This document shows positions 25,230-64,000 of a DNA stretch of 64,000 bases, piece by piece (position 1 is the stretch's first letter; the number at the start of each line of letters is the position of its first letter). The position numbers and the translations under genes were made by a program. The stretch lies in contig JBEPZV010000001.1 of assembly GCA_041640655.1 (NCBI GenBank), positions 160,229 to 224,228 of the forward strand, in the 5' to 3' direction. The notes beneath the pieces are model-generated. The model was given only the letters and a program-made list of their open reading frames with translations, did no database searches and was not told where the DNA came from. The DNA is from a bacterium (lineage in GTDB: Bacteria > Acidobacteriota > Blastocatellia > HR10).

Positions 25230-25625
25230 ATGAAAGAATTGGAGAAAACACTCAAAGCGTTGGCTGATCCAAGCCGATTGAGAATCTTGAACATCTTGTT
25301 CCACCAAGAAGTCTGTGTTTGCGATCTGCAATCGGTGTTGGGATTGCCCCAACCATTGCTTTCCCGGCACTTGGCGTATCTCCGAAACGCGCACCTGGTG
25401 CGAGACCGTCGAGACGGTCCGCGCGTGTGGTATTCGCTGGCGCTCGATGACGAAGTGGGACGCGCAGTTCGAGAGTTTCTTCAGAGAGTGTTTCCACTTT
25501 TTGAAACCTTTCAGACAGATTCAGCGAGAATGCGGCAATTTACGGAGAGTTGCGCCACCCCGCGAGGACATCAAAAGCTCCATCGGCGGGCCAATAGCTT
25601 AGCATTCGAGGAGATGACATCATGA
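25230..25625 (+). CDS. ArsR/SmtB family regulator
   Basis: KALADPSRLRIL, VCVCDL, SRHLAYLR. Confidence 0.9.
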   Translation: MKELEKTLKALADPSRLRILNILFHQEVCVCDLQSVLGLPQPLLSRHLAYLRNAHLVRDRRDGPRVWYSLALDDEVGRAVREFLQRVFPLFETFQTDSARMRQFTESCATPRGHQKLHRRANSLAFEEMTS

Positions 25626-31171: not shown

Positions 31172-31184
31172 CGTCACCCCCTCC

Positions 31185-32132
31185 TTATCGGTGACACACG
31201 CGGCAGGATAGCAGTCGGCGCACATTGGGCAATTCGTCCTCGATATAGAAGACGCGCGGCTGAGTCCCGGCGCTGGCCTTCACCTGCATCACCTTGTGCG
31301 TGGCCAGCAATTCGGAGACGAGACTCTGCGGATCATTCCTGTCGCCGAAGGACATCGCCCCGCCGATGCAGGTGGTCACGCAGGCCGGCAACATCCCGGC
31401 GTTGAGCCGATGCAAACAGAAGTGGCACTTGCGCGCGCGGCCGACCGGCGTCTGACCGCCCGCGCGCGTGTACTCGCCTTCGTATTCGTAGAACCTGCGC
31501 GTCTCGTAGGGCTGCGTCCCGCCGGGTGTATCGCTCGTGTAGAAATCACCGTCGTCGAAATAGAGGGCCGTGTATGGACAGGCCTGACGCGCGGCCTCGA
31601 ACGCTTCGCGCGAAGTGAATTTCGTGTAATCAATCGCCACGATGCCGTCGGGCCGCTTGGTGATCGCCCCCGGCGGGGCCGCTCTCATACAAGGCGGGTT
31701 GTCGCATTGCATGCAGTTGGTCGGCATGAACACGCGATTGAGGTTCGGGTACGTCCCGAATTCGATTTCGGGAACCGTTCGATAGGAAACGCCCGGCGGC
31801 GTCACATTCTCGGCTTTGCACGAGACGACGCACGCCTGACAACCGATGCAACGGCGCGGATCAATCACCATCACCCAGCTTCGCTCGGCGACCGGCTTGG
31901 CCAACGCCCGCTTCAAATCTTGTTGCATGCGTAAAAGGGCATTTTCGATCTGGGCCTGGTCGAGTCGGGTCTCTCGGGCCAGACCGGCAGCGGCTGTCTT
32001 CAGCGATGCGCGGTTGTCCCGGGCGACTTCGGCCAGTAGCGCTCCGGCCGCTCCCACCCCCACCAGTTTCAAGAACTTCCTCCTTTTGGCACGGCGCGTA
32101 GGCTCGTTCATCGTCGCCTCCTTCTGTGCCAT
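31185..32132 (-). CDS. ttrB: Tat-exported 4Fe-4S dicluster subunit (TtrB-like)
   Basis: RRKFLK; CIGCQAC..C, CMQCDNPPC, ACPY, CHFC..PACVTTC. Confidence 0.8.
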   Translation of the reverse strand: MAQKEATMNEPTRRAKRRKFLKLVGVGAAGALLAEVARDNRASLKTAAAGLARETRLDQAQIENALLRMQQDLKRALAKPVAERSWVMVIDPRRCIGCQACVVSCKAENVTPPGVSYRTVPEIEFGTYPNLNRVFMPTNCMQCDNPPCMRAAPPGAITKRPDGIVAIDYTKFTSREAFEAARQACPYTALYFDDGDFYTSDTPGGTQPYETRRFYEYEGEYTRAGGQTPVGRARKCHFCLHRLNAGMLPACVTTCIGGAMSFGDRNDPQSLVSELLATHKVMQVKASAGTQPRVFYIEDELPNVRRLLSCRVCHR

Positions 32133-33754: not shown

Positions 33755-33782
33755 TTGACAGGAGATCGGGGCGTGCTATAAT
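33755..33782 (+). promoter_or_regulatory. consensus sigma70 promoter with extended -10
   Basis: TTGACA (33755)-N16-TATAAT (33777), preceded by TG. Confidence 0.8.
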
Positions 33783-33820
33783 TGTTTTGCCAAACGAAAA
33801 TAAGTTTTATTGTACGAAAC

Positions 33821-34882
33821 ATGAAACGGCTGCGCGCGACGTCGGATCGGTACGTGGTCGAGGCCGTTGTGAAGGCGCTCGAGCTGTTGGATGCCTTCCA
33901 AGAGGCCATCGAAGTGATGCGGAAAGTGGACACGCTCATCGGGGATAAAACGGGCACGCTGACGGAGGGCAAGCCCAAACTCGTCACGGTGGTTCCCGCA
34001 GAAGGCTGGGACGAGCGGACGGTGCTGCGACTGGCCGCCAGCTTGGAGCGCGGCAGCGAGCATCCACTGGCGGCAGCCATCGTCGCGGGAGCGCGCGAGC
34101 GGGCGGTTGAGCTGACCGACGCGGAGTCCTTTGAATCAGTCCCGGGCAAGGGCGTGAAGGGTCGAGTTGACGGTTGTGCCGTCAGTTTGGGCAATCACAA
34201 GCTGCTCGGCGATCTCGGGATTGATCCGGACGATCTGACGACGACAGCGGAGGCCTTGCGGGCCGACGGTCAAACGGTGATGTTCCTGGCGGTAGAAGGC
34301 GCGGTGGCCGGTCTGCTCGGTGTGACTGACCCGATCAAGGCGACGACGCCGGAGGCTATTCGGCAGCTTCACGACGAAGGCATCCGCATCGTCATGGTCA
34401 CCGGCGACAATCATACGACGGCACAGGCGGTCGCCGGGAAGCTCAATATTGACGAGGTGGTCGCCGAAGTCCTGCCCGACCAGAAGGTCGAAGTGGTCAA
34501 GAAGCTCCAGGCCGAAGGCCGAATTGTGGCGATGGCCGGGGATGGCATCAACGATGCTCCGGCGTTGGCTCAAGCTCACGTGGGGATTGCCATGGGCACG
34601 GGCACGGATGTGGCGATGGAGAGCGCGGGAGTGACATTGGTCAAGGGAGACCTCCGGGGCATTGTCCGGGCGCGGCGTCTGAGCCGGGCGACCATGCGCA
34701 ACATCAAAGAGAACCTTTTCTTCGCCTTCATCTACAGCTTGCTCGGCGTGCCGATTGCGGCCGGAGTGCTCTATCCGTTCTTCGGCATCCTGCTCAGTCC
34801 GATCATCGCGGCGGCGGCGATGAGCTTCAGTTCGGTGTCTGTAGTGGGCAACGCGCTGCGGCTGCGGCGGGTGCGCTTATAA
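33821..34882 (+). pseudogene. IclR N-terminal stub fused in frame to the C-terminal half of a CopA-type P1B ATPase
   Basis: [16 protein letters not shown] followed by [28 protein letters not shown]; no TM1-6, CPC or TGE. Confidence 0.75.
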
Positions 34883-43615: not shown

Positions 43616-44002
43616 ATGAACGCATTTGAGCGAACAGTCACAACTGACAAATCGTTTGAAGAGGCCGTTGCGGCCATTGAGCAGAAGGCCGCTGAGAAGG
43701 GTTTCCGGGTGCTGCACACGCACGATGTGGCGGCGACGTTGGCGGAAAAGGGCTTCCCACGCGAGCCCCTGAAGATTATTGAAATCTGCAACGCCAAGTA
43801 CGCGAGCCAGGTGCTCAACAGGGATGTGAAGATTTCCCTCATGCTCCCCTGCCCGATCAGTGTGTATGTCGAAGGCGGCCAGACGCACATCAGCACGCTG
43901 CTCCCGACTTCGATTGTGCAGTTCTTTCCCCACGCCGGGATTGAGGATCTCGCGTCGGAGGTGGAGAGCATTGTGCTCCGGATTATAGAAGAGGCGCGTT
44001 GA
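43616..44002 (+). CDS. DUF302 domain protein
   Basis: GFRVLHTHDV, EICNA, LMLPCPISV. Confidence 0.85.
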   Translation: MNAFERTVTTDKSFEEAVAAIEQKAAEKGFRVLHTHDVAATLAEKGFPREPLKIIEICNAKYASQVLNRDVKISLMLPCPISVYVEGGQTHISTLLPTSIVQFFPHAGIEDLASEVESIVLRIIEEAR

Positions 44003-44007
44003 GGAAA

Positions 44008-45921
44008 ATGAAAGAGGATAAGAAAATGAAAGAGGACAAGAAGGAAGAAATCTTTGAGGGGAAATGGTACGCTCACCCCCCAATGCGAAACGCATTGATA
44101 GCCGCCGTGCTCGCAGGCACCGCATTTGGGTTGGCTCATCTTGGGAGTATTCCTTCGCTGGTCGAGACCGCTCTCTATCTGGTGGCCATCCCATTGGGTG
44201 GCTACCACTGGGCTCGCGAAGGGATTGAAGAGTTGATCGAAGAGAACGAGATCGGCATAGAAATCCTGATGCTGGCGGCTACGCTTGGTTCAGCGGTGTT
44301 GGGCATGTTGGATGAAGCCGCCTTCCTGGTCGTCCTCTACGGGGCGGCTGAGGGATTGGAGGAGTACACCTACGCCAGAACCAGGGCTTCCATCAGGAAA
44401 CTTCTCGACCTCGCTCCCAAAGAGGCGAGAGTCATCAGGAATGGGGAAGAAATAATCATACCCGCTGAAGAGATAGCTGTCGGAGATGTCTTCGTCGTCC
44501 GGCCCGGCGAGTCCATCCCAACAGATGGCATTATTGTCAAAGGTCGGTCCAGCATCAATGAGGCTCCTGTGACCGGCGAATCCATCCCGGTTGAAAAGAA
44601 AGAGGGAATGAAGGTCTTTGCCGCTACTATCAATCAAGAAGGAGCGTTGGAGATCAGGGCCACAGCGACGTTTGAAGATAATACCCTCGCCAAAATGGTC
44701 CATCTGGTCGAGGAAGCACAGGAACAAAAGAGCAAGACTCAGCTCTTCATTGAAACGTTTGGGCGGAGATACTCTCCGTTAGTCCTCTTGAGTTCCTTGC
44801 TTCTCATCGTCATCCCTCCTCTGATCGGAGCGTCTTTTTCGGAATGGGCAACAAGGGCGGTGGTCCTTTTAGTCGCCGCTGCCCCTTGTGCTTTGGTGAT
44901 GTCTACGCCCGTCGCCATTGCCGCTGGGATTGGTCGGGCGGGCCGATCTGGCGTGCTGATTAAGGGAGGAATTCATCTCGAAAATCTGGGCAAGATCAAG
45001 GCGGTGGCGTTCGATAAGACAGGAACGCTCACCAGAGGCAAACCCATTGTAACCGACGTGGTGCCCCTGAATGGAGACGAATCTCAACTGCTGGCGTTCG
45101 CTTACAGTGTGGAGAGATTTTCTGAGCATCCCCTGGCCCAGGCCATTGTGGAAAAGGCGAAAGAATCTCATGTCGAGGCTCTGGAAGCCACCGACTTTAG
45201 CGCTCTTGTTGGTTCGGGCGCGAAGGCCAAGATTGCCGGCAGAACGATTTACGTTGGCAAACCAGGGCTATTTGAAGAGCTGGGTCTGAAGGTCCGGGGC
45301 ATTCCAGACGCTGAGAGGCTCAGGGACGAAGGGAAGACGGTGATTCTCGTGGGCACAGAAGAAAGTATTGCAGGGTTCATTGCCATCCGAGATGAGGTGA
45401 GACCCCAAGCCAAAGAGGTCGTAGATCAGCTTCACCGGATGGGTGTGAGAGTCGTCATGCTGACTGGCGACAATGAGGTGACGGCCAAAGCGATTGCTAA
45501 GGAACTGGGTATAGATGAAGTGAAGGCCGATCTCAAGCCAGAAGATAAGATCAAAGCGGTGGAAGAATTGGAAAAGAAGTATGGGTCTGTGGCGATGGTT
45601 GGTGATGGTATCAACGATGCGCCGGCATTGGCCAGAGCGACCGTTGGCATAGCTATGGGCGTAGCCGGGACCGATGCCGCCATCGAAGCCGCCGATATTG
45701 CTCTTATGGCCGATGATCTCACCAAGGTGGTTTATGCGATCAATCTTGGCAAGAGAGCCAGACGGATCAGCTTGCAGAACATTGTCTTTTCGCTCCTCAT
45801 TCTGGCGGTTCTGATACCCTCAGCTCTCATTGGCATCATGACAGTGGCCATTGCGGTTGTGGCGCATGAGGGCTCAGAGCTTTTGGCGGTGGCCAATGGT
45901 TTGCGGGTAGCAAGGGGGTAG
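44008..45921 (+). CDS. P1B heavy-metal ATPase (Zn/Cd/Co type, no N-terminal HMA domain)
   Basis: [30 protein letters not shown]. Confidence 0.92.
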   Translation: MKEDKKMKEDKKEEIFEGKWYAHPPMRNALIAAVLAGTAFGLAHLGSIPSLVETALYLVAIPLGGYHWAREGIEELIEENEIGIEILMLAATLGSAVLGMLDEAAFLVVLYGAAEGLEEYTYARTRASIRKLLDLAPKEARVIRNGEEIIIPAEEIAVGDVFVVRPGESIPTDGIIVKGRSSINEAPVTGESIPVEKKEGMKVFAATINQEGALEIRATATFEDNTLAKMVHLVEEAQEQKSKTQLFIETFGRRYSPLVLLSSLLLIVIPPLIGASFSEWATRAVVLLVAAAPCALVMSTPVAIAAGIGRAGRSGVLIKGGIHLENLGKIKAVAFDKTGTLTRGKPIVTDVVPLNGDESQLLAFAYSVERFSEHPLAQAIVEKAKESHVEALEATDFSALVGSGAKAKIAGRTIYVGKPGLFEELGLKVRGIPDAERLRDEGKTVILVGTEESIAGFIAIRDEVRPQAKEVVDQLHRMGVRVVMLTGDNEVTAKAIAKELGIDEVKADLKPEDKIKAVEELEKKYGSVAMVGDGINDAPALARATVGIAMGVAGTDAAIEAADIALMADDLTKVVYAINLGKRARRISLQNIVFSLLILAVLIPSALIGIMTVAIAVVAHEGSELLAVANGLRVARG

Positions 45922-46025
45922 AGGCGAACCATGAGTTCAAAGTGCGCATTGACCGCTTCCTGACAGGCAAAGGAACACGCATGCAGGGTTGTTGGACATG
46001 GCGGAGATCAAGTCGCTTTTGTCGC

Positions 46026-46076
46026 TGGACACTTTCACTTGCCGTCTCTAGAATAGTTGAGCAATTGTTCAATTAT
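46026..46076 (+). promoter_or_regulatory. sigma70 promoter with overlapping SmtB/CadC-type operator
   Basis: TGGACA-N17-TAGAAT (46026-46054); inverted repeat ATAGTTGAGCA-AT-TGTTCAATTAT (46053-46076). Confidence 0.75.
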
Positions 46077-46091
46077 GATTATGAGGTGAAT

Positions 46092-46490
46092 ATGCCGAAA
46101 GCGACTGTCACTAAGAAGCGAACCAGCGCCCGGCTCCCAGTGCGCGACACGTGCGAGCAAGTTTGCTACGATGCGCCGCTTGTGCGCACGCTCAAGCGAG
46201 AGATGCTCGCCGACGATACTGTGATGGAACTGGTGGCGACCTTCGAGGTTTTGGCCGACCCAACACGCCTCCGAATTATCTACGCGCTCGGCCGGGGCGA
46301 ATTGTGCGTGTGCGACCTGGCGCATGTGCTGGGGATGAGCTTGTCTGCCACGTCGCACCAACTGCGGCGACTGCGCGATCTTCGGCTGGTCAAGTACCGA
46401 TACGAGGGCCGGATGGCCTTCTATTCGCTCGATGACGAGTTCATCAAGAAGATGGTGGAAGATGCGGTGCAGCACGTAGAGAGTGATTGA
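46092..46490 (+). CDS. ArsR/SmtB metalloregulator (CadC/SmtB-like)
   Basis: N-terminal CEQVC; LADPTRLRI; ELCVCDLA; SHQLR; C-terminal H. Confidence 0.9.
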   Translation: MPKATVTKKRTSARLPVRDTCEQVCYDAPLVRTLKREMLADDTVMELVATFEVLADPTRLRIIYALGRGELCVCDLAHVLGMSLSATSHQLRRLRDLRLVKYRYEGRMAFYSLDDEFIKKMVEDAVQHVESD

Positions 46491-46491
46491 G

Positions 46492-47610
46492 ATGACGAAT
46501 CAAGAGCCGATTGAGAAAATCCGATCCGAACTGCAAGAGGGCATGAGCCTGGCCAAATGCCGGAAGTGTGGATGCATGAAGGAGACCCTGGAAAATCTCG
46601 GGACTTCGCTTTCTTCAATCGAAACTCCGGCTTCTTCAGATTTGCGTCAACAGATCGGAGCCTGGCTAAAGCAAATGGAACCGATCAAGTATGCGTGCCT
46701 GGGGTGCGAGTATTGCTTCCCGGCGGTGGCGATGAATGTTTTTCACCAAGCCTTTCCTGAAGCCGCACAGGGTCCATCGCTAGGGTGCGCCTTTGAAGTG
46801 AGAGTGCGAACCTGGCCCCCTGTGCCAGGGGAATATTTCGCTTTCTGTGATGGCCCAGCTTGTCCAGTCGCCGTCTCCACTCTGGCCAGTGTGGAACTGG
46901 CCGAAACGCTGGCCGGCATAAGACCAAAAGAGCTTTGCATTGTCGGCAAGACAGAGACAGAAAACATCGGCATTGACAAGGTCATCAAGAACACGATCAC
47001 CAATCCCACGATTCGCTTTCTTCTGTTGGTGGGGGAAGACCCTCAAGGCCATCAGCCCGGCAGGACATTTCTTGCTCTGTCGAAAAATGGTGTTGATGAG
47101 AACGGGCGGGTGATAGGCTCTCCTGGCAAGCGCCCTATTTTAAGAAACGTGACCCCTGAAGAGGTGGAAACCTTTCGGAAACAGGTGCGGGTTGTGGACC
47201 TAATTGGATGTGAAGATGTGAAGACCATCATTGAGAAACTCAAAGAACTCTCACAGAGTCTCAGCCTGTCCTGCAACTGTGCGGAGTCCACTAAGGAAAC
47301 CATGCCTGTTCAGAATTCCACCGTGCCAGTCATTCAGGCAGAAGAGCCCACGAAAGTTGAGATGGATAAGGCCGGCTATTTCGTGATCATTCCACAGCCA
47401 GAGAAGGGGATCATCGCGGTAGAACATTACTCTTACGACAACCGGCTTTTAAGAGTCATTGAGGGCAAGAATGCCAGAAGCATCTCCTGGACAATCATTG
47501 AAAACGGTTGGGTGACGCAGCTCTCTCACGCCGCTTATCTCGGAAGGGAATTGGCTAAGGCAGAACTTTCAATGAGACTGAGATTCAAATACATTCAGGA
47601 CGGAGCATAA
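46492..47610 (+). CDS. Cys-rich N-domain + MtrA-like corrinoid-binding domain + DUF4346
   Basis: CRKCGC, CLGCEYC; WPPVPGEY, TENIGIDKVI, NPTIRFL..GH; MDKAGYF...SHAAYLGRELAKAE...YIQD. Confidence 0.85.
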   Translation: MTNQEPIEKIRSELQEGMSLAKCRKCGCMKETLENLGTSLSSIETPASSDLRQQIGAWLKQMEPIKYACLGCEYCFPAVAMNVFHQAFPEAAQGPSLGCAFEVRVRTWPPVPGEYFAFCDGPACPVAVSTLASVELAETLAGIRPKELCIVGKTETENIGIDKVIKNTITNPTIRFLLLVGEDPQGHQPGRTFLALSKNGVDENGRVIGSPGKRPILRNVTPEEVETFRKQVRVVDLIGCEDVKTIIEKLKELSQSLSLSCNCAESTKETMPVQNSTVPVIQAEEPTKVEMDKAGYFVIIPQPEKGIIAVEHYSYDNRLLRVIEGKNARSISWTIIENGWVTQLSHAAYLGRELAKAELSMRLRFKYIQDGA

Positions 47611-47615
47611 AAACG

Positions 47616-48302
47616 ATGGAAAGGGGAACTTCAACCATAGTGAAACAAGTTTTGGACGCGCAGCGCCAACATTGGGAAAATACATTTTCAAAGAAGCCTG
47701 ATATGTTTGGGAGCGAGCCCAGTGATTGCGCTCGAAAAGCAGCAGAGCTATTCAAAAAAGAAGGTCAAACCAAGATTCTCGAACTCGGAGGCGGACAGGG
47801 GCGAGATACCATCTTCTTTGCTCAAAGTGGTTTTCACGTTCACGTACTTGATTATTCTGGGAACGCAGTTGAAGCCATCACCCAAAAAGCCCGAGCATTG
47901 GGCTTGTCTCAGTCCGTCAGAGCGATATGTCACGATGTTAGAGAACCCCTCCCCTTCGATAATGAATCTTTCGATGGTTGCTATTCGCATATGTTGTATT
48001 GTATGGCGCTCACAACTTCGGAGCTCGAATTTCTTTCAGACGAAGTCAGGCGGGTATTAAAACCAGGTGGACTCAACATTTACACAGTTAGGCATACAGG
48101 TGACCCCCATTATGGAACAGGCATTCATCGAGGGGAGGGTATGTATGAGGTTGACGGATTTATTGTGCATTTTTTTAGTAAAGAAAAAGTACAACATTTA
48201 GCCAAAGGATATGAAATCGTTGGCGTTGATGAATTTGAAGAAGGTGGACTTCCCAGAAAACTATTCCGAGTAACACTGAGAAAGAAAGGAGGCGAATCAT
48301 GA
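47616..48302 (+). CDS. class I SAM-dependent methyltransferase
   Basis: ILELGGGQGRD, FDGCYSHM, RRVLKPGG. Confidence 0.9.
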   Translation: MERGTSTIVKQVLDAQRQHWENTFSKKPDMFGSEPSDCARKAAELFKKEGQTKILELGGGQGRDTIFFAQSGFHVHVLDYSGNAVEAITQKARALGLSQSVRAICHDVREPLPFDNESFDGCYSHMLYCMALTTSELEFLSDEVRRVLKPGGLNIYTVRHTGDPHYGTGIHRGEGMYEVDGFIVHFFSKEKVQHLAKGYEIVGVDEFEEGGLPRKLFRVTLRKKGGES

Positions 48303-48805
48303 CGAAGACAAAACTTGCAGTGCTCACTACCGCCTGCTTAATCTTAGGTGGCATTTGGCTGTCCAGTTATGCTCAACAGAGCGAAGTGCACAAAAAAGCA
48401 ACGGAAGGACAGTCTCAAATGCAAATGGGACCGGAGATGATGCAGCAAATGATGAAGGACATGGGCAACAATCCTATGATGGCCCAATGCCAGCACATGA
48501 TGCGCACCGTCATCTATCCCGATAGTGCATCGAGCATCCTTGCCTTGAAGGAACAACTTGACCTTTCCGAAAAGCAGACGAAAGAGCTCATAGCCATTCA
48601 GGAAAAGGCCAATGCCGAGGCAAAGAGAGTCCTTACCGAGGAGCAGGGTAAGAAGTTTGAAGCGCTGACCAAAGACTGGAAGCCACAATCCATGATGCAA
48701 TGCATGCAAACCATGATGTCTCAGATGCAGAAGATGATGGGAGGCCAGATGCCTGCCTGTCCTATGATGCAAATGATGCAAGGAAAGGAGCGACGAACAA
48801 AGTAA
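48299..48805 (+). CDS. exported Met-rich Spy/CpxP-like protein
   Basis: Signal peptide; LDLSEKQ and LTEEQ motifs; many Met residues. Confidence 0.6.
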   Translation: MTKTKLAVLTTACLILGGIWLSSYAQQSEVHKKATEGQSQMQMGPEMMQQMMKDMGNNPMMAQCQHMMRTVIYPDSASSILALKEQLDLSEKQTKELIAIQEKANAEAKRVLTEEQGKKFEALTKDWKPQSMMQCMQTMMSQMQKMMGGQMPACPMMQMMQGKERRTK

Positions 48806-48918
48806 CGGGACAAAAGTTCGGGGCGCTTTTTGCTGGTGCCTTGACAGCTATTCAAGAGCGTTCCTTTGGTTTAAAAGTGTTCCCGAACTTTTGTCCACCT
48901 ACTAAGGAGCATTGAATC

Positions 48919-49344
48919 ATGAAGCGAGTCATCCTCGTGCTGATCATTGTGGCTGTAGCCGCCGTCGTGACCGTGAAGCTGGTAAGCAGAAAGCAAAAGC
49001 CTCAACCGCCATCGGCAGTGGTGACCGCACCATCATCGGCCAGCACCCAAGGCAAGCCAATTCTTTATCTGTTTCACGATCCGTCTGATCAGGATGCCGG
49101 TTGTCGGCGCATTTACGCCTATCTGGATCAGGCCGAGAGAGAACTGGCTGGGCAAGTGGAAGTGCGGCGGCCGGATGTTGAGCGTGAGAAGAATCTTGTC
49201 GAGCAGTTTCAGGTGCGGGTGCTGCCGACGGTCTTGCTCGTATCGCCAACCGGTGCTGTTGAGCAACGCTTTGAAGGTGAGGACAGTTCAACCGCCGAGC
49301 ACATCGAGCAGGCGCTCGAACGATTGAAAGGGATGCCACAGTGA
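48919..49344 (+). CDS. membrane-anchored thioredoxin-fold protein (single Cys)
   Basis: N-terminal TM; HDPSDQDAGC; VRVLPT..L...RFEG. Confidence 0.65.
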   Translation: MKRVILVLIIVAVAAVVTVKLVSRKQKPQPPSAVVTAPSSASTQGKPILYLFHDPSDQDAGCRRIYAYLDQAERELAGQVEVRRPDVEREKNLVEQFQVRVLPTVLLVSPTGAVEQRFEGEDSSTAEHIEQALERLKGMPQ

Positions 49345-50000
49345 ATCCACCGAACATTGAAGAGATTTCTTTGACAGCTTTTGTGCTGACCTTTATGGGC
49401 GGGATCGTGACCGGCTTCAATCCCTGCTGCTATACGATGGTCCCAGCACTGGTTGGCTACCTGAGCGGGTACTGTGAGCCATCGGTGAAGCGATGCGCGT
49501 GGCTGTCGGGCTGGTTTGCCATCGGGCTTGCTACGGCCACTGCGATGTTGGGATTAATCGCTGTGCTTGCTGGTGGAATATTCGGCGGCGTGCATCCAGC
49601 GGTGCGTTATCTTCTCGCCGTGATACCGATTGTAATGGGTTTGCACCTGTTGGGGATTATCAATATCAAAGTGCCAGCGGTTCGCCATTGGCGGCCTATC
49701 CGCTCTGGTACACTCGGCGCGTATCTCACCGGCTTGCTATTTTCTCTGGCGATCCTTCCTTGTGCTACTCCTATTTTGGCTTCAATTCTCGCGTATACTG
49801 CCAGTCATGGCAGTGTGCTTTATGGCTCAGCATTGCTCTTCATCTATGGCACAGGAATCGGTGTGCCAATTGTACTTGTCGGTACAAGCCTCGGCATTCT
49901 TTCATCACTGCGACTACTGGCTTGCTGGTGGTCGGTGGTTCACCGCCTCAGCGGCGTAATCCTCATTGGGCTGGGCTTCTACTTGCTCTGGCAAGCATAA
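49341..50000 (+). CDS. CcdA/DsbD transmembrane-domain protein
   Basis: GFNPCC..VP, PCATPIL, six TM segments. Confidence 0.85.
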   Translation: MNPPNIEEISLTAFVLTFMGGIVTGFNPCCYTMVPALVGYLSGYCEPSVKRCAWLSGWFAIGLATATAMLGLIAVLAGGIFGGVHPAVRYLLAVIPIVMGLHLLGIINIKVPAVRHWRPIRSGTLGAYLTGLLFSLAILPCATPILASILAYTASHGSVLYGSALLFIYGTGIGVPIVLVGTSLGILSSLRLLACWWSVVHRLSGVILIGLGFYLLWQA

Positions 50001-50227
50001 TTCGCTATGGACCACAAAGAAAAAAGCTGGTCGTTCCAGGCAATAGCCACACTCACCACAACGCCAGCGGGCAGACGGTCAAAGACCTTGTCTGGGGGAA
50101 CCCTTTGAAGAAATGGCTCGACATGATGCGCCAATTCTGGGCGAGATTTGTCCTGACGGCTCCGATTCTCCACATCCACTGGCCCGATGAGTTGACCATC
50201 TCCCAAGTATCGCTCTAACGTCGTATC

Positions 50228-51304
50228 GTGGGGCAGCTCGCCGCCTATACGCTCTTTCTGTTTAATGGTCGTCTGGCCTTCCAACTGGCGGACGCTGTGG
50301 GAACCGGATTTACCAACTACATCTCGAACGCCTCGGTGAATGATGGGCAGTGGCATCATGTTGCGGCGACGGTTCAGCGAACGAGCGGGCCCCCCATGCT
50401 CACGCTCTACGTGGATGGCATGTCAGTTCTCACCAATCCGAATCCGAGAATGGGCAATCTGACGAACACGAATCCATTATGGATCGGACGGCGGCATCCT
50501 GTTCCTGGCGCTACGACGGACCGGTTCTTCGTCGGAGACATTGACGAAGTGGAACTCTTCAACCGGGCGCTGACTCAGCAAGAGATTCAAGCCATCGTCC
50601 AGGCGGGCGCGGCGGGCAAATGCAAGGGGTGCATCGAAGGCATGAAGTGGAACGATGCCAACGGCAACGGTGTGAAAGATCCCAATGAGTCAGGGCTGTC
50701 GGGCTGGACGATTCAGCTCAGCGGTCCTTCTGGTGTGATTGCCACGACCACCGGCACCGGCGGCACCTATCGCTTCTGCGGATTGCCGCCGGGCACCTAC
50801 ACGGTGGCAGAAGTGTTAGTGTTGCAGCCTTTCTGGGTGCGCACGTTCCCGCCGCCACCGGGCACGCACACGGTCACGCTCGGCGTCAATCAGACGGTGT
50901 CCAACATCAACTTCGGCAATCGGCGGGTGATCGTTCTGCCTGATTTCGTGGTGAAGAATCTGCGCGTGCTGCCGCCCGTGATTCCGCGGGGAGGGACGGC
51001 CATTGTTTCGTTTGACATCGTCAATCAAGGTGAAGGGGAAGCCGGTCCGGCGACCCATCAGGTGCGGCTCTTCATCCGGCGTCCCGGTCTTCCCGACCTT
51101 GATGTGTTGCTCGCCACGGTGGCGACGGGAACGCTGGCTGCCGGCGGCTCGCAATCGTTCACCGTGGCGATCCGGTTGCCGCAAGAGGTTCCGACCGGCA
51201 CGGCCCTGATTCGCGTCCTGGCCGATGCAGGGAGAACGGTCAACGAGTCGAACGAGGAGAACAACGTGGCCGAAGTTCAGATCACCATCACCGGAGGACC
51301 GTAG
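50228..51304 (+). pseudogene. 5'-truncated LamG + SdrD-B-like + CARDB surface protein
   Basis: DGQWHHVA..LYVDG..GDIDEV; WNDANGNG..D; PDFVV...ESNEENN; no signal peptide. Confidence 0.7.
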
Positions 51305-52772: not shown

Positions 52773-53421
52773 GGCGCTTCCTCCGTTCGCCGAGCTCACC
52801 CACATTGTGCCACGAGTAGCGGTGTTTGTGAACTGAGCAGGCGAACCGCTGTCGGTGTGCGCCGGATGCGAATCGGAGACGACGCGAACGGACCGAAGGA
52901 GGGACACCCTGTTGTGAGAACGGCGCAGCCAGAATCCGGGAGCGTCAATGGCGGATACTTCGAGCTTGCCGAACTTCGAGATCCTCCGCGAGCGGCTGGC
53001 TCGGGAACTGATCCTCTGCCTCAGTCTGGACCATTTGACGCTCTGGACTGCCTGAGAGGGGGATCGCGAGCGGTGGAGGGGCCAGCTCGTGGCTGAACTG
53101 CGCACCGATGACTTGTCGTGATGGATGCGGAGCTGGCACGTGTGAAGAAGAGAACCGCAAGCGACATCGGGTGATCAATGGAGGGGGAGCGGAGCCTGGG
53201 GAGAGGTGCTCGGTCTCAGGAAGCCCATTGAGTCCGATAATTCGACGAGGACCGAGCGTCTGGCGAGGGCTCGGTCGTCGTTGTTTTGTTTGTTTGCGGT
53301 GTCCGCTTCCACGCCATTTCATGTGAAGGAGGCGTGGCTTATCCCGGGCGTGTTTCGGCGCTTGAGGCGTGTGGCCTCGTCGTGTATAGTGTTGGTGATT
53401 GGGCGGAGGTCATGTGGCACT

Positions 53422-54618
53422 ATGGCTTTTGAGGTGGACGATTATCTGGATCTGATTCGACTGCTGCAGGAGCATCCGGAGTGGCGGGCAGAGCTGCGCC
53501 GTCTGCTGCTGACGGAGGAGCTGCTGGCGCTACCGGAGCTGGTCCGTGATCTGGTCCACGCCCAGCGGCAGACGCAAGAACACCTGGCGGCGTTGGCCGA
53601 GGCGCAACGGCGGATCGAACAACAGGTGGAGGCGTTGACGCAACAGGTGCAGGCCTTGGCCGAGGCACAACGGCGGACGGAGGAGCGGGTCAGTCGGGTG
53701 GAGGAAGAGCTGGCCAAGCTGGCCGAAGCGCAACGGCGGACGGAGGAGCGGGTCAGTCGGGTGGAGGAAGAACTGGTCAAGCTGGCCGAGGCACAACGGC
53801 GGACGGAGGAGCGGGTCAGTCGGGTGGAGGAAGAACTGGTCAAGCTGGCCGAGGCACAACGGCGGACGGAGGAGCGGGTCAGTCGGGTGGAGGAAGAGCT
53901 GGCCAAGCTGGCCGAGGCACAACGGCGGACAGAAGAGCGGGTCAGTCGGGTGGAGGAAGAGCTGGCCAAGCTGGCCGAGGCACAACGGCGGACGGAGGAG
54001 CGGGTCAGTCGGGTGGAGGAAGAACTGGTCAAGCTGGCCGAGGCACAACGGCGGACGGAGGAAGAGGTGCGTGCTCTGGCCGAGGCCCAGCGCCGGACCG
54101 AGCAGCGTGTTGGCCATCTGGAAGAAGCGCTGCAGGTCCTGATCGAGAGCCACAAACGCTTGACGGATGTGGTGGGCGATCTCAGGGGGCGCGTGTTGGA
54201 ACAGACCTACCGCGACCGGGCCGGCGCATACTTCGGTCCGTTGCTGCAGCGGCTCCGGGTCGTGGACCCGTATGCGCTGGAGGAGGTGTTGCGCGTCCAT
54301 CTCACGGCGGACGAGTTTTACGATCTGCTGCGCGTAGACCTGCTCGTTTGTGGGCAGCCGCGGTTGCGGCCGGAGATGATGGAGGTCTGGCTGGTGGTGG
54401 AGATCTCGGCCGTCGTGGATCAGGGTGATGTCGAGCGCGCCCAACGGCGGGCCAAACACTTGCGCCGAGCCGGCTATCGGGCGATTCCGATGGTGGCTGG
54501 GGAGCGCGTGACGTCGGGCGCAGAGGACGAGGTCCGCCGGCACCGCGTGGCGGTCTTGCAGGATGGGAGCGTGTCCTTCTGGGAGGAAGCCCTGGAGGCG
54601 TGGGCGGGCAGCGCCTGA
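53422..54618 (+). CDS. coiled-coil repeat protein with C-terminal PD-(D/E)XK-like domain (paralog of 21737..22987)
   Basis: [16 protein letters not shown]; six 63-nt [19 protein letters not shown](A/V)K units; VDLLV...VVEIS...DVERAQRRA. Confidence 0.8.
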
Positions 54619-58724: not shown

Positions 58725-58766
58725 ACATTTGTTTAACGCCGATGGAGAAATGAAAGAGAGGAGGTG

Positions 58767-59894
58767 ATGCGGATGCGCCGGTTGACGAAGATGAGCATCG
58801 TGTTTTCGGCGGTTTTGTTCGGAGGAATTCTTGTCCTCCCCGTGGGGGGCGGCGGCAAAGCACCCGTCAAACAGTCGGTCCCACCAGAACAGGCGTTCCC
58901 GACGAGCCTTCACGCGACGCGGCGGGGCAAAGCAACGTGGTACGCAGCGGCGAACGGCGGTTTTGAAGCATTGACAAACATCCCGATCAACCAGCTTGCT
59001 TGCCTCGGTTGTCACCCGGGCACTAAGGCGGATGGTTCTCCAATTGACCCGGCGACTTACAAACCGGATTGCTTCGACTGTCACATCCAGCCCGGCGACA
59101 GGGTGAGCGACCAGACTTGCCTCAAATGCCATCGCCGCCAAGCCTCCGAAATTGCGTTCGGCTACCCCGATGTGCACCGAAGTGCCGGTGGCTTCCGCTG
59201 CATGAGTTGCCACACGCTCAAAGAGATGCACGGCGACGGTCGCGAATACGCCTCCTGGCTCGAGCCCGGCGCAATGGAGGTGACCTGCGAACAATGCCAC
59301 CCCGCACCCAAGCGCAATCCTGCTCACGACATTCACCTGGCGACGGTTCAGTGCACTGCCTGCCACACCAAATCGGTCCTCTCGTGTTACAACTGCCACT
59401 TCGAGAGTGAGGTTGAGGGCGGGATAAAGCGACCTTATGGTGTGATGCGCGATTTCGTTTTCCTCGTCCGCAGACATGGAACCAACAAGGTCTATGCGGG
59501 AACGATGATGAGCTTGACGTACAATGGCAAATCCTTCGTCGCCATCGCCCCGTATCGAGCCCACACGATCGTCAAGGAAGCGCGCACGTGTGACGAGTGC
59601 CACAACAACGCGGCGGTTCAGGAATACCGGCAGACCGGCAAAATCACCATCACGAGATGGGACCCCGATCGAGGCAAATTGGTCGGTCCCAAAGGCATCA
59701 TCCCCATCCCTCCCGACTGGCGGCAGGCGCTGCAGTTTGACTTCGTCGACTACACTGGTGACCCCAAATCACCGACCACCGATCCGACCAAGTGGGTGTT
59801 TCTCAAATCAGGTGCGGATTTGATGCAGATGCTTTACGCCGACCCACTCACCCCTGAACAAATGCGGAAATTGTCCACGCCGTATTCGCCTTGA
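58767..59894 (+). CDS. octaheme c-type cytochrome
   Basis: Signal/TM segment; eight CxxCH motifs (CLGCH, CFDCH, CLKCH, CMSCH, CEQCH, CTACH, CYNCH, CDECH). Confidence 0.9.
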   Translation: MRMRRLTKMSIVFSAVLFGGILVLPVGGGGKAPVKQSVPPEQAFPTSLHATRRGKATWYAAANGGFEALTNIPINQLACLGCHPGTKADGSPIDPATYKPDCFDCHIQPGDRVSDQTCLKCHRRQASEIAFGYPDVHRSAGGFRCMSCHTLKEMHGDGREYASWLEPGAMEVTCEQCHPAPKRNPAHDIHLATVQCTACHTKSVLSCYNCHFESEVEGGIKRPYGVMRDFVFLVRRHGTNKVYAGTMMSLTYNGKSFVAIAPYRAHTIVKEARTCDECHNNAAVQEYRQTGKITITRWDPDRGKLVGPKGIIPIPPDWRQALQFDFVDYTGDPKSPTTDPTKWVFLKSGADLMQMLYADPLTPEQMRKLSTPYSP

Positions 59895-60053: not shown

Positions 60054-61178
60054 TTACGCACCATCTTGAATGTATTTGAACCCCAGCTTGATGGAAAGCT
60101 CTGCCTTCGCCAACTCCTTGCCAAGGTAGGCGGCATGACTGAGTTGCGTAACCCAACCGTTGTTGATGATCGTCCAATAGATGCTCCGCGCATCCTGGCC
60201 CTCGATCACTCGCTGGAGCGTGTTATCGTAGGAGTAATGCTCGACGACGATGACCTGCCTTTCTGGTTGAGGGAGAATCACAAAATAGCCTGCCTTATCC
60301 ATCTCTATCTTTGCGGGCGGTTCCGCGCGGATGATGGGCACTTCTGAGAACGGAGCCGGAGTGGTTCGCTCGCGGGTTTCTCGACAGGCGCAAGACGGAC
60401 GAGACGTCTGAGCAAGTTCCTTGATTGTCTCAATGATGTTCTCCATATCTTCGCATCCTATCATATCCACAACCCGGACCTGCTTCCGGAAGACTTCCAC
60501 CTCTTCACGCGTTACATTCCTCAGAATCGGGCGTTTGCCAGGGGAACCGATGACTCGCATGGTTTCGTCAACCCCGTTTTCCCATAGGGCGAGGAAGGTC
60601 CTGCCGCTTTGGTGCCCCCTCGGATCTTTTCCGGCGACCAGGAGAAAGCGAATCGTTGGGTTTGTAATGATATTTTTGATCACCTTCTCAATGCCGATGT
60701 TTTCCGTCTCGGTCTTCCCCACAATACAAAGCTCTTTTGGCCTCGCGCGGGCAAGGCTTTCAGCAAGCTCTACCGAGGCAAGGGTGGAGACGGCCACAGG
60801 GCAGCCGGGACCATCGCAGAACGCATGATATTCTCCAGCAACCGGAGGCCACTTGTGCTCGCTCACCTCAAAGGCGCAACCGAGTGACTGAGATTCGCCG
60901 ACTTCAGGAAAGGCTTGATGAAACACGTTCATCGCCACCGCCGGAACGCAGTAATCGCACCCAAGGCAGGCATACTTGATCGGCTCCATCTGCCCCAGCC
61001 AGCGCTCGATATTTGCAAGCAAGTCCGAGGAAGCTTCGACTTGCAAAGACGAAAGCGAGGTTCGCAGGCTCTCTAAAGTCTCTTTCATACAGCCGCACTT
61101 CCGGCATTTCGGAAGCACCATGCCTTCTCGGAGTTCAGATTGAATTTTGTCCTTCCAATTTGCGTCCGTCATATCCAA
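60054..61178 (-). CDS. second Cys-rich/MtrA-like/DUF4346 protein
   Basis: Collinear with 46492..47610 and shares long identical runs (QMEPIKYACLGC, RPKELCIVGKTETENIGI, GWVTQLSHAAYLG). Confidence 0.85.
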   Translation of the reverse strand: MDMTDANWKDKIQSELREGMVLPKCRKCGCMKETLESLRTSLSSLQVEASSDLLANIERWLGQMEPIKYACLGCDYCVPAVAMNVFHQAFPEVGESQSLGCAFEVSEHKWPPVAGEYHAFCDGPGCPVAVSTLASVELAESLARARPKELCIVGKTETENIGIEKVIKNIITNPTIRFLLVAGKDPRGHQSGRTFLALWENGVDETMRVIGSPGKRPILRNVTREEVEVFRKQVRVVDMIGCEDMENIIETIKELAQTSRPSCACRETRERTTPAPFSEVPIIRAEPPAKIEMDKAGYFVILPQPERQVIVVEHYSYDNTLQRVIEGQDARSIYWTIINNGWVTQLSHAAYLGKELAKAELSIKLGFKYIQDGA

Positions 61179-62408: not shown

Positions 62409-63053
62409 GTCGCAATCCTCTTTAAAGCGAGTCCTGGTTTCCGACGGGGGAAATCGAGGACGGTGTTGAATATAGCCGGCCTCGGTTGTCGCAATCCTCT
62501 TTAAAGCGAGTCCTGGTTTCCGACGCGGCAAAGCCCGCACGGTGTTGTCGGTAGCTGGATTGGGTCGCAATCCTCTTTAAAGCGAGTCCTGGTTTCCGAC
62601 AAAAGATGGCCACAAGGTGGTAATAGACATGCTGCTAAGCGTCGCAATCCTCTTTAAAGCGAGTCCTGGTTTCCGACAGAAAGTTGCTCTTGAGTGGGCT
62701 CCGGCGTTTACCGGAGTGTCGCAATCCTCTTTAAAGCGAGTCCTGGTTTCCGACCCGAAGTTGAGGAAATTGAGTAGTTACCGGACGCAAACGTCGCAAT
62801 CCTCTTTAAAGCGAGTCCTGGTTTCCGACTGTGATCTACGGAAAGTATGTGCCTCAGAAGTTGCTATGTCGCAATCCTCTTTAAAGCGAGTCCTGGTTTC
62901 CGACGGCTAGAGTTTATCTACGATGCTGCTCTCCCTAATCCGTCGCAATCCTCTTTAAAGCGAGTCCTGGTTTCCGACCGCGTACTTGAACGCCCATGCC
63001 GATCTTTTGGCGGATTGTCGCAATCCTCTTTAAAGCGAGTCCTGGTTTCCGAC
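62409..63053 (-). CRISPR. CRISPR array: 9 identical 37-nt repeats, 8 spacers of 37-42 nt
   Basis: Repeat GTCGGAAACCAGGACTCGCTTTAAAGAGGATTGCGAC (minus strand) at 62409, 62488, 62564, 62641, 62718, 62793, 62868, 62942, 63017; leader on the cas2 side. Confidence 0.98.
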
Positions 63054-63449
63054 TGCCGTGGGGTTTAGTTCTGAAAGTCCAATGGGTTAGGTGGGCGAAA
63101 GTGATAACCCCCATACCCCCTCGGGCTTCGGCCCCCATCTGAAGGGCCATGAAGGGACCGATGTTTCGACCTAACCCTCTGAATCCCCACATCTTAGCCT
63201 TCCGGTGATAACCCCCCTTACCCCCCCTCCCAAAACCAGGACCTCCGGGTTGTCAAACACCAAGCCGATTTGGGCACGTTCGCCCTTCTTTTACTCCATC
63301 TCACCCAAAAAGTCAACGGTTGTGTATCCGCCCGGCGCCTTTGGGACCCTACAGGTCCAGGAACTGCCGCACGCTGGATCACCTCTTCTGCCAATAAGGC
63401 GAGCACTGCGCTCTGGTCCCCCTTTGCGCGCTCGAAGATCGGCTCAAGC

Positions 63450-63743
63450 TCACCAGATGTAGATGTCCTCCTGACGGGTGACATCGCCTCGCCCCTCGAC
63501 GATGATCTCGTCCACGCAGGCCTGGCAGAGCCGATAGCAGCGCAGGCTGTCAGTCGCCGGATCAATCTTCGTTCGAAGCCGCCCGAGCAAGACTATGAAC
63601 TGATCCTCCGTCAGCAGGCACTCGAAGACGCTGTATTGGACGCGGGTGCCGAAGTCCTTGAGGATCTCGGCGACCTGGGTGCGCCGTTTGTCGTCGGTGA
63701 TGTCGTAGCTGATGATGTAGAACATGACGCGTTTGATCGGCAT
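63450..63743 (-). CDS. cas2: CRISPR-associated endoribonuclease Cas2
   Basis: YIISYDITDDKRR, RVQYSVFEC, DSLRCYRLC. Confidence 0.95.
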   Translation of the reverse strand: MPIKRVMFYIISYDITDDKRRTQVAEILKDFGTRVQYSVFECLLTEDQFIVLLGRLRTKIDPATDSLRCYRLCQACVDEIIVEGRGDVTRQEDIYIW

Positions 63744-63745
63744 GC

Positions 63746-64000
63746 TCAGGGTTCGGCCAAGTAGGGGGTATATTCCCCGCCGGTGGTGACGGCGTGCGCC
63801 AGGTGTTCGGCCTGTCCCAGCAGGAGCCGACGAAAGTTCGTGCGGTGGCCCGTATGGCGGGAGATGAAGGCACGCTGCATCATGTCCTCGTACTGGCGGA
63901 GGAAGTGCTTCTTCGCTTCCGGCGTGAACCAGATGCCGCCGCTCTCGGTGGCGGTGAAATGCTGGGGCGACAGGGCCTCGGTATTGAAGAGCGTCAGCAC
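63746..64000 (-). CDS. cas1: Cas1 C-terminus (cut by the window edge)
   Basis: Position directly upstream of cas2; ...KKHFLRQYE...QAEHLAHAV...YTPY. Confidence 0.75.
   Translation of the reverse strand: MLTLFNTEALSPQHFTATESGGIWFTPEAKKHFLRQYEDMMQRAFISRHTGHRTNFRRLLLGQAEHLAHAVTTGGEYTPYLAEP

Follow-up and report, generated by a model that had tools for sequence, protein, structure and literature searches.

A metal-sensor-led operon around a soluble MtrA-like protein, a candidate B12-dependent module for thiophilic metal(loid)s in an acidobacterial metal island

The DNA analysed here (the window, 64,000 nt) comes from a bacterium of the Acidobacteriota (Blastocatellia; HR10; GenBank assembly GCA_041640655.1, contig JBEPZV010000001.1, positions 160,229 to 224,228 of the forward strand), and all positions below are counted from its first letter. 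At 46026-50000 it carries six forward-strand genes that centre on a protein with an MtrA corrinoid domain, which we call MtrAL. The first gene (46092-46490) encodes a 132-residue ArsR/SmtB repressor of the CadC (alpha3N, thiolate) type, and the second (46483-47610) encodes MtrAL, 375 residues with a Cys-rich helical N-domain, the MtrA domain and a DUF4346 domain. They are followed by genes for a 228-residue class I S-adenosylmethionine (SAM) methyltransferase resembling MduS and TehB (47616-48302), a 168-residue Met-rich exported protein that is weakly LTXXQ/Spy-like (48299-48805), a membrane-anchored thioredoxin-fold (Trx-like) protein with a single Cys (48919-49344), and a 219-residue CcdA/DsbD-type membrane thiol-relay protein (49341-50000; DsbD_TM, 80.9 bits). 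Adjacent genes overlap or lie at most 5 nt apart, save for a 113-nt gap 5' of the Trx-like gene. The ArsR stop codon (46488-46490) overlaps the reading frame that begins with the MtrAL GTG at 46483, or stands 1 nt before an alternative ATG at 46492, from which the database copy of MtrAL (372 residues) begins. Five nucleotides separate the end of MtrAL at 47610 from the methyltransferase start at 47616, the methyltransferase stop and the Met-rich ATG share the tetranucleotide ATGA (48299-48302), and the Trx-like stop overlaps the CcdA GTG (49341-49344).

A sigma-70-like promoter, TGGACA-17-TAGAAT, lies on the same strand at 46026-46054 (10 of 12 consensus matches). It is the sole such site within 45500-50600, where shuffled sequence gave a mean of 3.4, so that the count is not above chance; the promoter was called for its position, 38 nt before the ArsR ATG. 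An imperfect palindrome with 15-nt arms of 87% complementarity, at 46053-46076, shares bases with the -10 hexamer and is a candidate ArsR/SmtB-type operator. Its 16-nt core occurs once in the window, and we take the palindrome, as a candidate, to resemble the 12-2-12 operators. The original prediction, made from the letters of the DNA, had described this promoter, operator-like palindrome, tight coupling and gene order, and each was found in the sequence. The exported Met-rich, thioredoxin-fold and CcdA genes that it placed downstream were confirmed by composition and Pfam matches, and its placement of the operon in a czc/P1B-ATPase metal island by domain matches upstream.

The regulator matches Pfam HTH_5 with 64.5 bits and NF033788 with 92.2 bits, and in the PDB it is closest to SmtB (88.7 bits), followed by CadC of pI258 (1U2W, 71.7 bits). 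Two motifs, DTCEQVCYD and ELCVCD, align with both Cys motifs of CadC 1U2W, and one His of the C-terminal alpha5 site is replaced by Phe. Position 11 of CadC is Gly in the crystallised chain, where the wild-type residue is presumably Cys; we take the four Cys of CadC to form the thiolate site that senses Cd, Pb and Bi. Homologues of MtrAL were examined in 160 loci, 80 from genomes and 80 from metagenomes, some of the latter duplicating the former. The CxxxC and CVCD motifs recur in the ArsR protein encoded upstream of MtrAL in five further loci (L031, L034, L039, L041 and L043 of this set), which indicates that a CadC-type regulator travels with MtrAL.

Residues 109-258 of MtrAL match Pfam MtrA (PF04208) with 127.6 bits against a cut-off of 25, and residues 294-373 match Pfam PterinBD-DUF4346 with 81.5 bits. 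NCBIfam NF002128, which has the same architecture, matches residues 6-375 (model positions 9-370 of 390) with 443 bits, under its cut-off of 568. The model of the membrane MtrA, TIGR01111, gives 121 bits, under its cut-off of 249, and the C-terminal membrane helix is absent from MtrAL, whose C-terminus is DUF4346. Compared by sequence, the MtrA domain matches PDB 5LAA, a homologue with bound cobalamin, at E 3.5e-31. An AlphaFold2 model of MtrAL had a mean predicted local distance difference test score (pLDDT) of 83 and a predicted template modelling score (pTM) of 0.45; its MtrA domain superimposes on 5LAA_B with a VIA Z of 21.2 and a root mean square deviation of 2.2 Å over 143 residues at 45% identity, and Foldseek gave E 2.8e-12 for the same domain. 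No clear structural match was found for DUF4346 when the whole model was compared. The domain also occurs in pterin-related archaeal proteins (TIGR00284 match).

The alignment places H190 of MtrAL on His84 of 5LAA and E160 on Glu54. The available text of PMC4915002 gives His84 as the cobalt ligand and Glu54 as its hydrogen-bond partner, and reports that some bacteria have MtrA homologues, most of which keep His84. Both H190 and E160 are kept in 166/166 aligned homologues of MtrAL, and an alignment of 60 homologues shows C26, C29, C31, C72, C75, C78, H190 and the stretch GKTETENIGI to be invariant. Judged from these alignments, the residues that hold cobalamin in MtrA are kept in MtrAL. The host genome (3.13 Mb, 89.8% complete) carries one cobalamin riboswitch and two proteins with B12-binding domains, which indicates that a corrinoid is available to or used by the host. 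CobS was not found in this genome, and the corrinoid is probably imported. Neither MtrH nor a MetH-type enzyme was found there, and its one pterin-binding protein has the size of FolP.

The N-terminal domain of MtrAL carries two Cys motifs, C26-x2-C29-x-C31 and C72-x2-C75-x2-C78. Residue counts were taken from 166 tblastn matches of at least 200 residues: C26, C29 and C31 are present in 157/157 aligned homologues, C75 in 164/164 and C78 in 165/165. Position 72 is Cys in 155, Tyr in one and an in-frame stop in eight. All eight stops are TGA in the context YT-U-LGC-x-HC, so that the motif reads U-x-x-C, with a possible hairpin a few bases downstream; they lie in L046, L127, L130, L142, L153, L154, L159 and L160 and amount to about five distinct sequences. 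The TGA is a probable selenocysteine (Sec) codon, so that these relatives would have a selenoprotein form of MtrAL. The replacement of Cys72 by TGA in eight relatives also shows the Cys site to be functional and chemically active, in redox chemistry or soft-metal binding. One practical consequence is that gene callers split the MtrAL gene in two in some genomes. The 2026 review of prokaryotic selenoproteins lists MduS, and a term search of its available text (PMC13188914) did not return the MtrAL family. TGA codons in the first Cys triad of truncated relatives (L040, L140, L143, L148, L151 and L157) were also considered, and none was convincing.

The N-domain is a helical bundle, and when folded alone it reached a pLDDT of 88. 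No fold could be assigned: in comparisons of the whole model and of the domain alone the best VIA Z was 6.8, to unrelated helical proteins and at noise level. A word-based search found no stand-alone family for this domain; its 20 short matches are pieces of the MtrAL family with 52-75% identity. Several claims of the original prediction thus stand. It had called the repressor gene cadC-like, and CadC-type Cys motifs align with 1U2W; the histidine of the GH motif that it saw retained in the MtrA domain is H190, which aligns with the cobalt ligand of 5LAA; and the Cys cluster to which it gave a role is functional by its six invariant Cys and the TGA at Cys72 in eight relatives. Its statement that no other mtr subunit or membrane anchor is present also agrees with the absence of the C-terminal membrane helix from MtrAL and of any MtrH detected in the 89.8%-complete genome.

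The MtrAL family comprises 2220 matches at 90% clustering and is conserved at 49-82% identity from Nitrospirota to Thaumarchaeota and Asgard archaea; the nearest named relatives are Blastocatellia. Its distribution is patchy: in the host phylum, 6 of 301 genomes match (E <= 1e-20), the host's own genome counted, and three have a full-length match at 69% identity or more. Neighbouring genes in the 160 loci were named from Pfam and NCBIfam. Nineteen loci, all from Nitrospirota or Thermodesulfovibrionia, have the order MtrAL-parA-parB with no metal gene within 5 kb. Among the other 141, 76 have at least one gene of a metal-resistance/Cys-relay panel within 5 kb; for 11.1-kb windows drawn at random from the host genome the figure is 142 in 2000 (7%). 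The size of the enrichment is rough because the control is a single genome and the panel was derived in part from the same loci. The original prediction had proposed a survey of homologues for co-occurrence with metal genes, and this enrichment beside metal(loid) genes is strong. Within 5 kb, over all 160 loci, the panel genes most often seen were TM4CC (40) and C4unk (34), two cysteine-bearing families described below, followed by ArsR (33), RND (19), P1B (12) and CsoR-family genes (11). Acr3 and DUF302 (6 each), MerR (5), ArsA and ArsP (4 each), and MerA and MerT (3 each) were also found. DUF302 and P1B genes share one operon with MtrAL in L034, L039 and L041. A membrane protein of about 190-215 residues, c38, is encoded directly beside MtrAL in eight of the 160 loci (including L006:1522-2175, L007 and L010), and searches of Pfam (E up to 5), NCBIfam and the ESM Atlas gave it no named family.

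TM4CC spans about 165 residues; it has four hydrophobic segments, the third of which contains an invariant GCCGSPML, and a tail rich in Cys. In 40/160 loci it is encoded immediately before MtrAL or joined to the MtrAL N-terminus in a fusion. C4unk, a periplasmic protein of about 127 residues, has a signal anchor and a conserved G-C-E-D-x-C pair and usually precedes TM4CC (for example TM4CC at L030:7483-7995 and C4unk at L030:7103-7486). Fusion is also seen in the databases, where 14 of the 120 best homologues of MtrAL are long forms of 508-563 residues. The Pfam domains of these are shifted by about 160 residues in 5/5 examined, and the N-terminal extension is TM4CC in 2/2 compared. Neither TM4CC nor C4unk has a family in Pfam (E up to 5), NCBIfam or the ESM Atlas, C4unk touching CcmE at E 0.014, and both are absent from the window. 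The most extended arrangement is a cluster of eight same-strand genes (L103:90-7125), which includes a MerT-HMA-thioredoxin fusion, a Met-rich protein, an MduS-like methyltransferase, a cytochrome c-like protein, a double AhpC/redoxin protein, C4unk, a second methyltransferase and a TM4CC::MtrAL fusion. The true MerT domain of this cluster lies in a gene of its own, separate from TM4CC. By analogy, C4unk and TM4CC look like a new cysteine relay of the mer type.

The window methyltransferase is a class I enzyme that matches Pfam Methyltransf_25 with 64.7 bits. It aligns with positions 6-215 of the 338-position MduS model (NF045649) with 299.5 bits, under the cut-off of 380, and with Pfam TehB with 29 bits (cut-off 20.4). 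It scores 28-35 bits with the NCBIfam TehB equivalogs (cut-offs 218-303), lies far under the ArsM equivalog cut-off, and reaches 42 bits with the model of the corrinoid-protein-associated methyltransferase CpaM, for which the cut-off is 180. The possibility that a full MduS is made by Sec read-through was rejected, the frame beyond the TGA being full of stops. Only one of the 160 loci, L103, has a homologue of this enzyme near MtrAL (59% identical, about 3.9 kb upstream in the same cluster), and a 33% identical homologue of the Met-rich protein stands beside it. In L091, where MtrAL is 84% identical and which is the nearest relative with a visible downstream flank, a Trx-like gene (81% identical) follows MtrAL directly with no methyltransferase between. 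The methyltransferase and Met-rich genes have the lowest GC content of the operon (0.445 and 0.485). Because of the single pairing in 160 loci, the L091 gene order and the low GC, we read these two genes as a separately acquired accessory that appears to have been inserted into the operon. Class I methyltransferases of other subfamilies occur within 5 kb of MtrAL in 7/160 loci, and true ArsM genes are present in L029 and L049. The window enzyme is plausibly a chalcogen or thiol methyltransferase, and the Met-rich protein plausibly a periplasmic metal binder. The latter contains 25 Met among its 168 residues, starts with a signal-like sequence, matches LTXXQ at E 0.016, under the cut-off, and has a relative in L030 that matches Metal_resist (PF13801) with 30.4 bits. 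The Trx-like protein matches Pfam Thioredoxin with 27.3 bits and has DAGC in place of CxxC; a Trx-like and CcdA pair also follows MtrAL in L029, L044 and L123, and the Trx-like homologues in L029 and L044 bear the CxxC.

In the metatranscriptome library X1, four contigs are identical to parts of 47415-48962 and bridge the MtrAL/methyltransferase and methyltransferase/Met-rich junctions; the rest of 45900-50100 is uncovered in X1, and X2 gave no cover. We regard these contigs as a hint of expression only, because DNA carry-over is possible and contigs show neither transcript levels nor ends. A second MtrAL of 374 residues, 74% identical to the first, is encoded on the reverse strand at 60054-61178, so that both copies of the host genome lie inside the window; the original prediction had overlooked it. 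The paralog is monocistronic, with its own promoter-like sequence and no methyltransferase, and faces a gene for a multihaem cytochrome c (58764-59894). No copy of the ArsR operator was found before it within three mismatches.

The operon lies in a region whose GC content is 0.51-0.54 over 44-50 kb, compared with about 0.65 elsewhere. The metal island to which it belongs includes an ArsR-ArsP pair, a molybdopterin oxidoreductase, a czcCBA-type RND system, two multicopper oxidases, PII, DUF302 and a P1B ATPase. Genes for the last two, which recur as MtrAL neighbours, are found on the forward strand at 43616-45921 (TIGR01525, 612 bits). The ATPase itself (43999-45921, 640 residues) lacks an N-terminal HMA domain, and its membrane helices contain APC and HEGS motifs; we take it to resemble the Co/Fe/Zn-type P1B-4 pumps rather than ZntA or CadA. 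A cobalt link would be interesting beside a corrinoid protein. At 25230-26668 a second ArsR gene is translationally coupled to one for an ArsP_1-type permease, and the molybdopterin oxidoreductase (1092 residues) is encoded with a 4Fe-4S dicluster subunit on the reverse strand at 27947-32132. An open reading frame (ORF) of 366 residues at 33782-34882 holds the HAD/hydrolase part of a P-type ATPase alone and is possibly what is left of a truncated pump. The gene at 53206-54618 encodes a coiled-coil protein whose tandem repeats are nearly identical. Judged by eye, the repeat-spacer pattern at 62600-64000, visible as a motif that recurs in the translations of ORFs at 62617-63192 and followed by an apparent ORF of cas2 size on the reverse strand at 63450-63743, is probably a CRISPR-Cas locus at the end of the window. 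Outside the window, clustered tblastn matches to MerA-, MerT/HMA- and Acr3-like proteins at about 37-50 kb of host contig C1 suggest a separate mercury/arsenic locus.

What these observations support best is a description of MtrAL as a B12-type enzyme that has a Cys/Sec site and is dedicated to, and induced by, thiophilic metal(loid)s. Our preferred reading, held tentatively and with somewhat less than even confidence, goes further: the operon would be a metal-induced detoxification module whose core, MtrAL, is a soluble B12 enzyme that exchanges methyl groups with a metal(loid) bound by thiols. The sequences directly show the order and coupling of the genes, their domains, the conserved residues, the Sec/Cys pair, the neighbourhood counts and the fusions; what we infer is that MtrAL binds a corrinoid, that its N-domain binds a metal, which metal induces the operon, and that a methyl group is moved in one direction or the other. 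The CadC-type ArsR protein would sit on the palindrome over the -10 hexamer and leave it when its four-Cys site binds a Cd/Pb/Bi-type metal(loid), possibly also As, Sb or Hg. MtrAL would bind cobalamin in the manner of MtrA, the His190-Glu160 pair lying beneath the cobalt, and the six invariant Cys of the N-domain (Cys72 being Sec in some relatives) would bind a thiophilic metal(loid) beside it. We favour methyl exchange as the chemistry because the His-on MtrA site points to methyl transfer between Co(I) and CH3-Co(III). Either CH3-Co(III) would methylate a nucleophile of the As/Sb/Se/Te type, giving a product that is volatile or can be exported, or, alternatively, Co(I) would take the methyl group off a methyl-metal(loid). 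In many other organisms the substrate may arrive through a mer-like relay, from the periplasmic Cys-pair protein to the four-segment GCCGSP domain that is often fused to MtrAL, and in the window the Trx-like protein and CcdA may take that membrane/periplasm position. The MduS/TehB-like methyltransferase and the Met-rich protein would form an accessory pair rather than a conserved methyl donor.

Several observations weigh against the methyl-exchange module. Nineteen of the 160 loci place MtrAL before parA-parB and have no metal gene within 5 kb; 65 of the 141 other loci have no panel gene, several of them being in housekeeping settings; and the loci are not independent, given the duplicates between metagenomes and genomes and a panel taken partly from the same loci. 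The full-length relative nearest to MtrAL, that of L081 (82% identical), has a CBS/PALP gene on one side and rpmE-prfA on the other. The metal genes found as neighbours span As, Hg, Cu and Zn/Cd and so indicate no single substrate. Next to MtrAL there is no conserved enzyme that would donate or accept a methyl group, and the 89.8%-complete host genome shows no MtrH, a single pterin-binding protein of FolP size and no CobS. The meander motif of MtrA (consensus GAIPF-Y/F-x-EN) appears to be only partly kept: the window has GKRPILRN where 5LAA has GAIPYIEN, with the G, P and N retained and Glu changed to Arg. The paralog at 60054-61178 lacks the ArsR operator. The CxxCxxC triad with the remote Cys could equally bind an Fe-S cluster, the Sec/Cys pair notwithstanding.

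This last point bears on the alternative that survives best, which we nonetheless judge unlikely, that MtrAL is a reductase. An Fe-S cluster in the six-Cys N-domain would feed electrons to the cobalt, and Co(I) would reduce a thiol-bound metal ion or a metalloid oxyanion, yielding for instance Hg(0) from Hg(II) or elemental Se or Te from Se/Te(IV), which would make MtrAL a B12 counterpart of MerA on a mer-like relay. The Fe-S-like look of CxxCxxC fits such an enzyme, as do the lack of a conserved methyl donor or acceptor beside MtrAL, the many copies that stand alone, and a host with no MtrH or MetH-type pterin enzyme found. An import relay of C4unk and TM4CC followed by a cytoplasmic transformation is also the logic of mer, and MerA, MerC and MerT genes are present in some loci. 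However, a corrinoid is unneeded for such reductions, which flavin enzymes carry out, as is generally known for MerA, and His-on sites of the MtrA type are known, in the available text of PMC4915002, from methyl transfer alone.

Somewhat less probable still is a role for MtrAL as the cytoplasmic donor of a DsbD-like thiol relay, in which its CxxC or UxxC would pass electrons by way of TM4CC or CcdA to a periplasmic Cys-pair or Trx-like protein, and this protein would keep the thiols of the envelope reduced under metal stress. Two alternative pairs of partners, TM4CC with C4unk or CcdA with the Trx-like protein, suit this idea, the window having the second, and Sec/Cys pairs are typical of redox-active CxxC motifs according to the available text of PMC13188914. 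Such a relay would leave a fully conserved corrinoid site without a role, and half of the loci have neither membrane partner. Moreover, CcdA is normally served by thioredoxin, and the Trx-like protein of the window has one Cys.

The original prediction had cast the neighbouring SAM enzyme as the dedicated donor that methylates the cobamide, giving a SAM-to-B12-to-metal pair, and this part of it was not supported; we give it a small chance, slightly below that of the thiol relay. A homologue is present in one of 160 loci and absent from L091, the gene has lower GC than its neighbours, the paralog of MtrAL has no such neighbour, and the score with CpaM is 42 bits against 180. The enzyme resembles, besides, TehB/MduS-type methyltransferases, which act alone. 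In its favour are the 5-nt spacing of the two genes, the RNA-library contig that bridges their junction (DNA carry-over being possible), the 59% identical enzyme in L103 and the other class I subfamilies in 7/160 loci. Since no MtrH or MetH-type methyl-pterin enzyme was found, and with no other obvious methyl donor for the cobalt in the host, the methyltransferase could still load MtrAL here. We consider it least probable that MtrAL is a housekeeping C1, pterin or cofactor enzyme that rides in mobile islands with no metal role, for despite its 49-82% identity across phyla and both prokaryotic domains, the Nitrospirota parAB setting, the housekeeping contexts of L081 and others, and the presence of DUF4346 in pterin-related archaeal proteins, it shows about 7-fold enrichment beside metal genes, three families of metal sensor (ArsR, CsoR-type and MerR) directly upstream on the same strand, fusion to a Cys-pair membrane domain, and a patchy occurrence in 6/301 genomes of the phylum.

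A wider claim, which we think distinctly less probable than the module itself, is that MtrAL represents a new B12 enzyme class in which carbon-metal(loid) bonds are made or broken while Cys or Sec holds the substrate, which in many lineages would be fed in by the mer-like C4unk/TM4CC relay. It could be a demethylase that acts on methylmercury or methylarsenicals without oxygen and passes the methyl group to Co(I), or else a methylase of several elements. Few makers and breakers of methyl-metal bonds are known, namely the SAM-dependent ArsM, the corrinoid protein HgcA, MerB, and ArsI, which needs oxygen. In the available text of two sources (PMC10579292; bioRxiv 10.64898/2026.08.27.747368), oxygen-free arsenic demethylases are unknown and the corrinoid methyltransferases of methanogens are merely suspected of this activity. 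MtrAL is a concrete candidate for such methyl-metal chemistry, being widespread and highly conserved and having a Cys/Sec site, metal sensors and a fusion to a cysteine-transport domain. Our literature searches found no paper on DUF4346 and none joining an MtrA-like corrinoid protein with metal resistance; the listed match for MtrA-like corrinoid proteins in bacteria concerned other proteins, the Asgard MtrA/MtrAH. If true, the proposal would give a function to genes labelled 'tetrahydromethanopterin S-methyltransferase subunit A' in non-methanogens, a label that can mislead metabolic reconstructions. Taken together, the data point to an undescribed B12-based handling of toxic metals in many microbes.

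Among known systems, MtrA and its cytoplasmic homologues of methanogens (5LAA, 5L8X; PF04208) share with MtrAL the Rossmann-type fold and the His/Glu pair, and the cytoplasmic ones are soluble as MtrAL is. In contrast to them, MtrAL adds a 105-residue helical domain with six Cys and a C-terminal DUF4346, comes without an Mtr complex, MtrH or a membrane helix, and is encoded under a metal sensor in a resistance island rather than in methanogenesis. The ArsR protein aligns over its full length with CadC (pI258) and SmtB, and shares with this system the N-terminal Cys pair, the ELCVCD motif and a palindrome over its own promoter. It differs in the Phe that replaces an alpha5 His and in its regulated genes, which lack a cadA pump, the P1B ATPase lying upstream and outside the unit. 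The window methyltransferase aligns with the corresponding domain of MduS and passes the Pfam TehB cut-off, yet it is without the Sec-bearing C-terminal part of MduS and falls far under the TehB and ArsM equivalog cut-offs.

HgcA has a Cys ligand, a membrane domain and a ferredoxin partner, and to our knowledge hgcAB is not part of metal-induced resistance operons. MtrAL has no CFeSP-type corrinoid domain, membrane domain or HgcB partner, and the operon contains no ferredoxin gene. Its corrinoid fold is unrelated to that of HgcA (Pfam finds MtrA and DUF4346 alone in MtrAL), and it keeps a His lower ligand. What HgcA/HgcB and MtrAL have in common is a corrinoid protein that presumably acts on a thiophilic metal and has conserved Cys nearby, and Sec variants, which are listed for HgcA and HgcB in the available text of PMC13188914 and are probable in MtrAL. 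The mer system (MerP, MerT and MerA) offers the other likeness. In relatives of the window operon, a metal sensor likewise controls a series that runs from a Cys-pair protein in the periplasm through a membrane protein, which has vicinal Cys in a helix and a cytoplasmic tail rich in Cys, to an enzyme of the cytoplasm whose entry sites are Cys-rich. Unlike the mer proteins, TM4CC and C4unk match no Mer family in Pfam or NCBIfam and the enzyme is of the B12 type rather than a flavoprotein, and the window itself has CcdA and the Trx-like protein.

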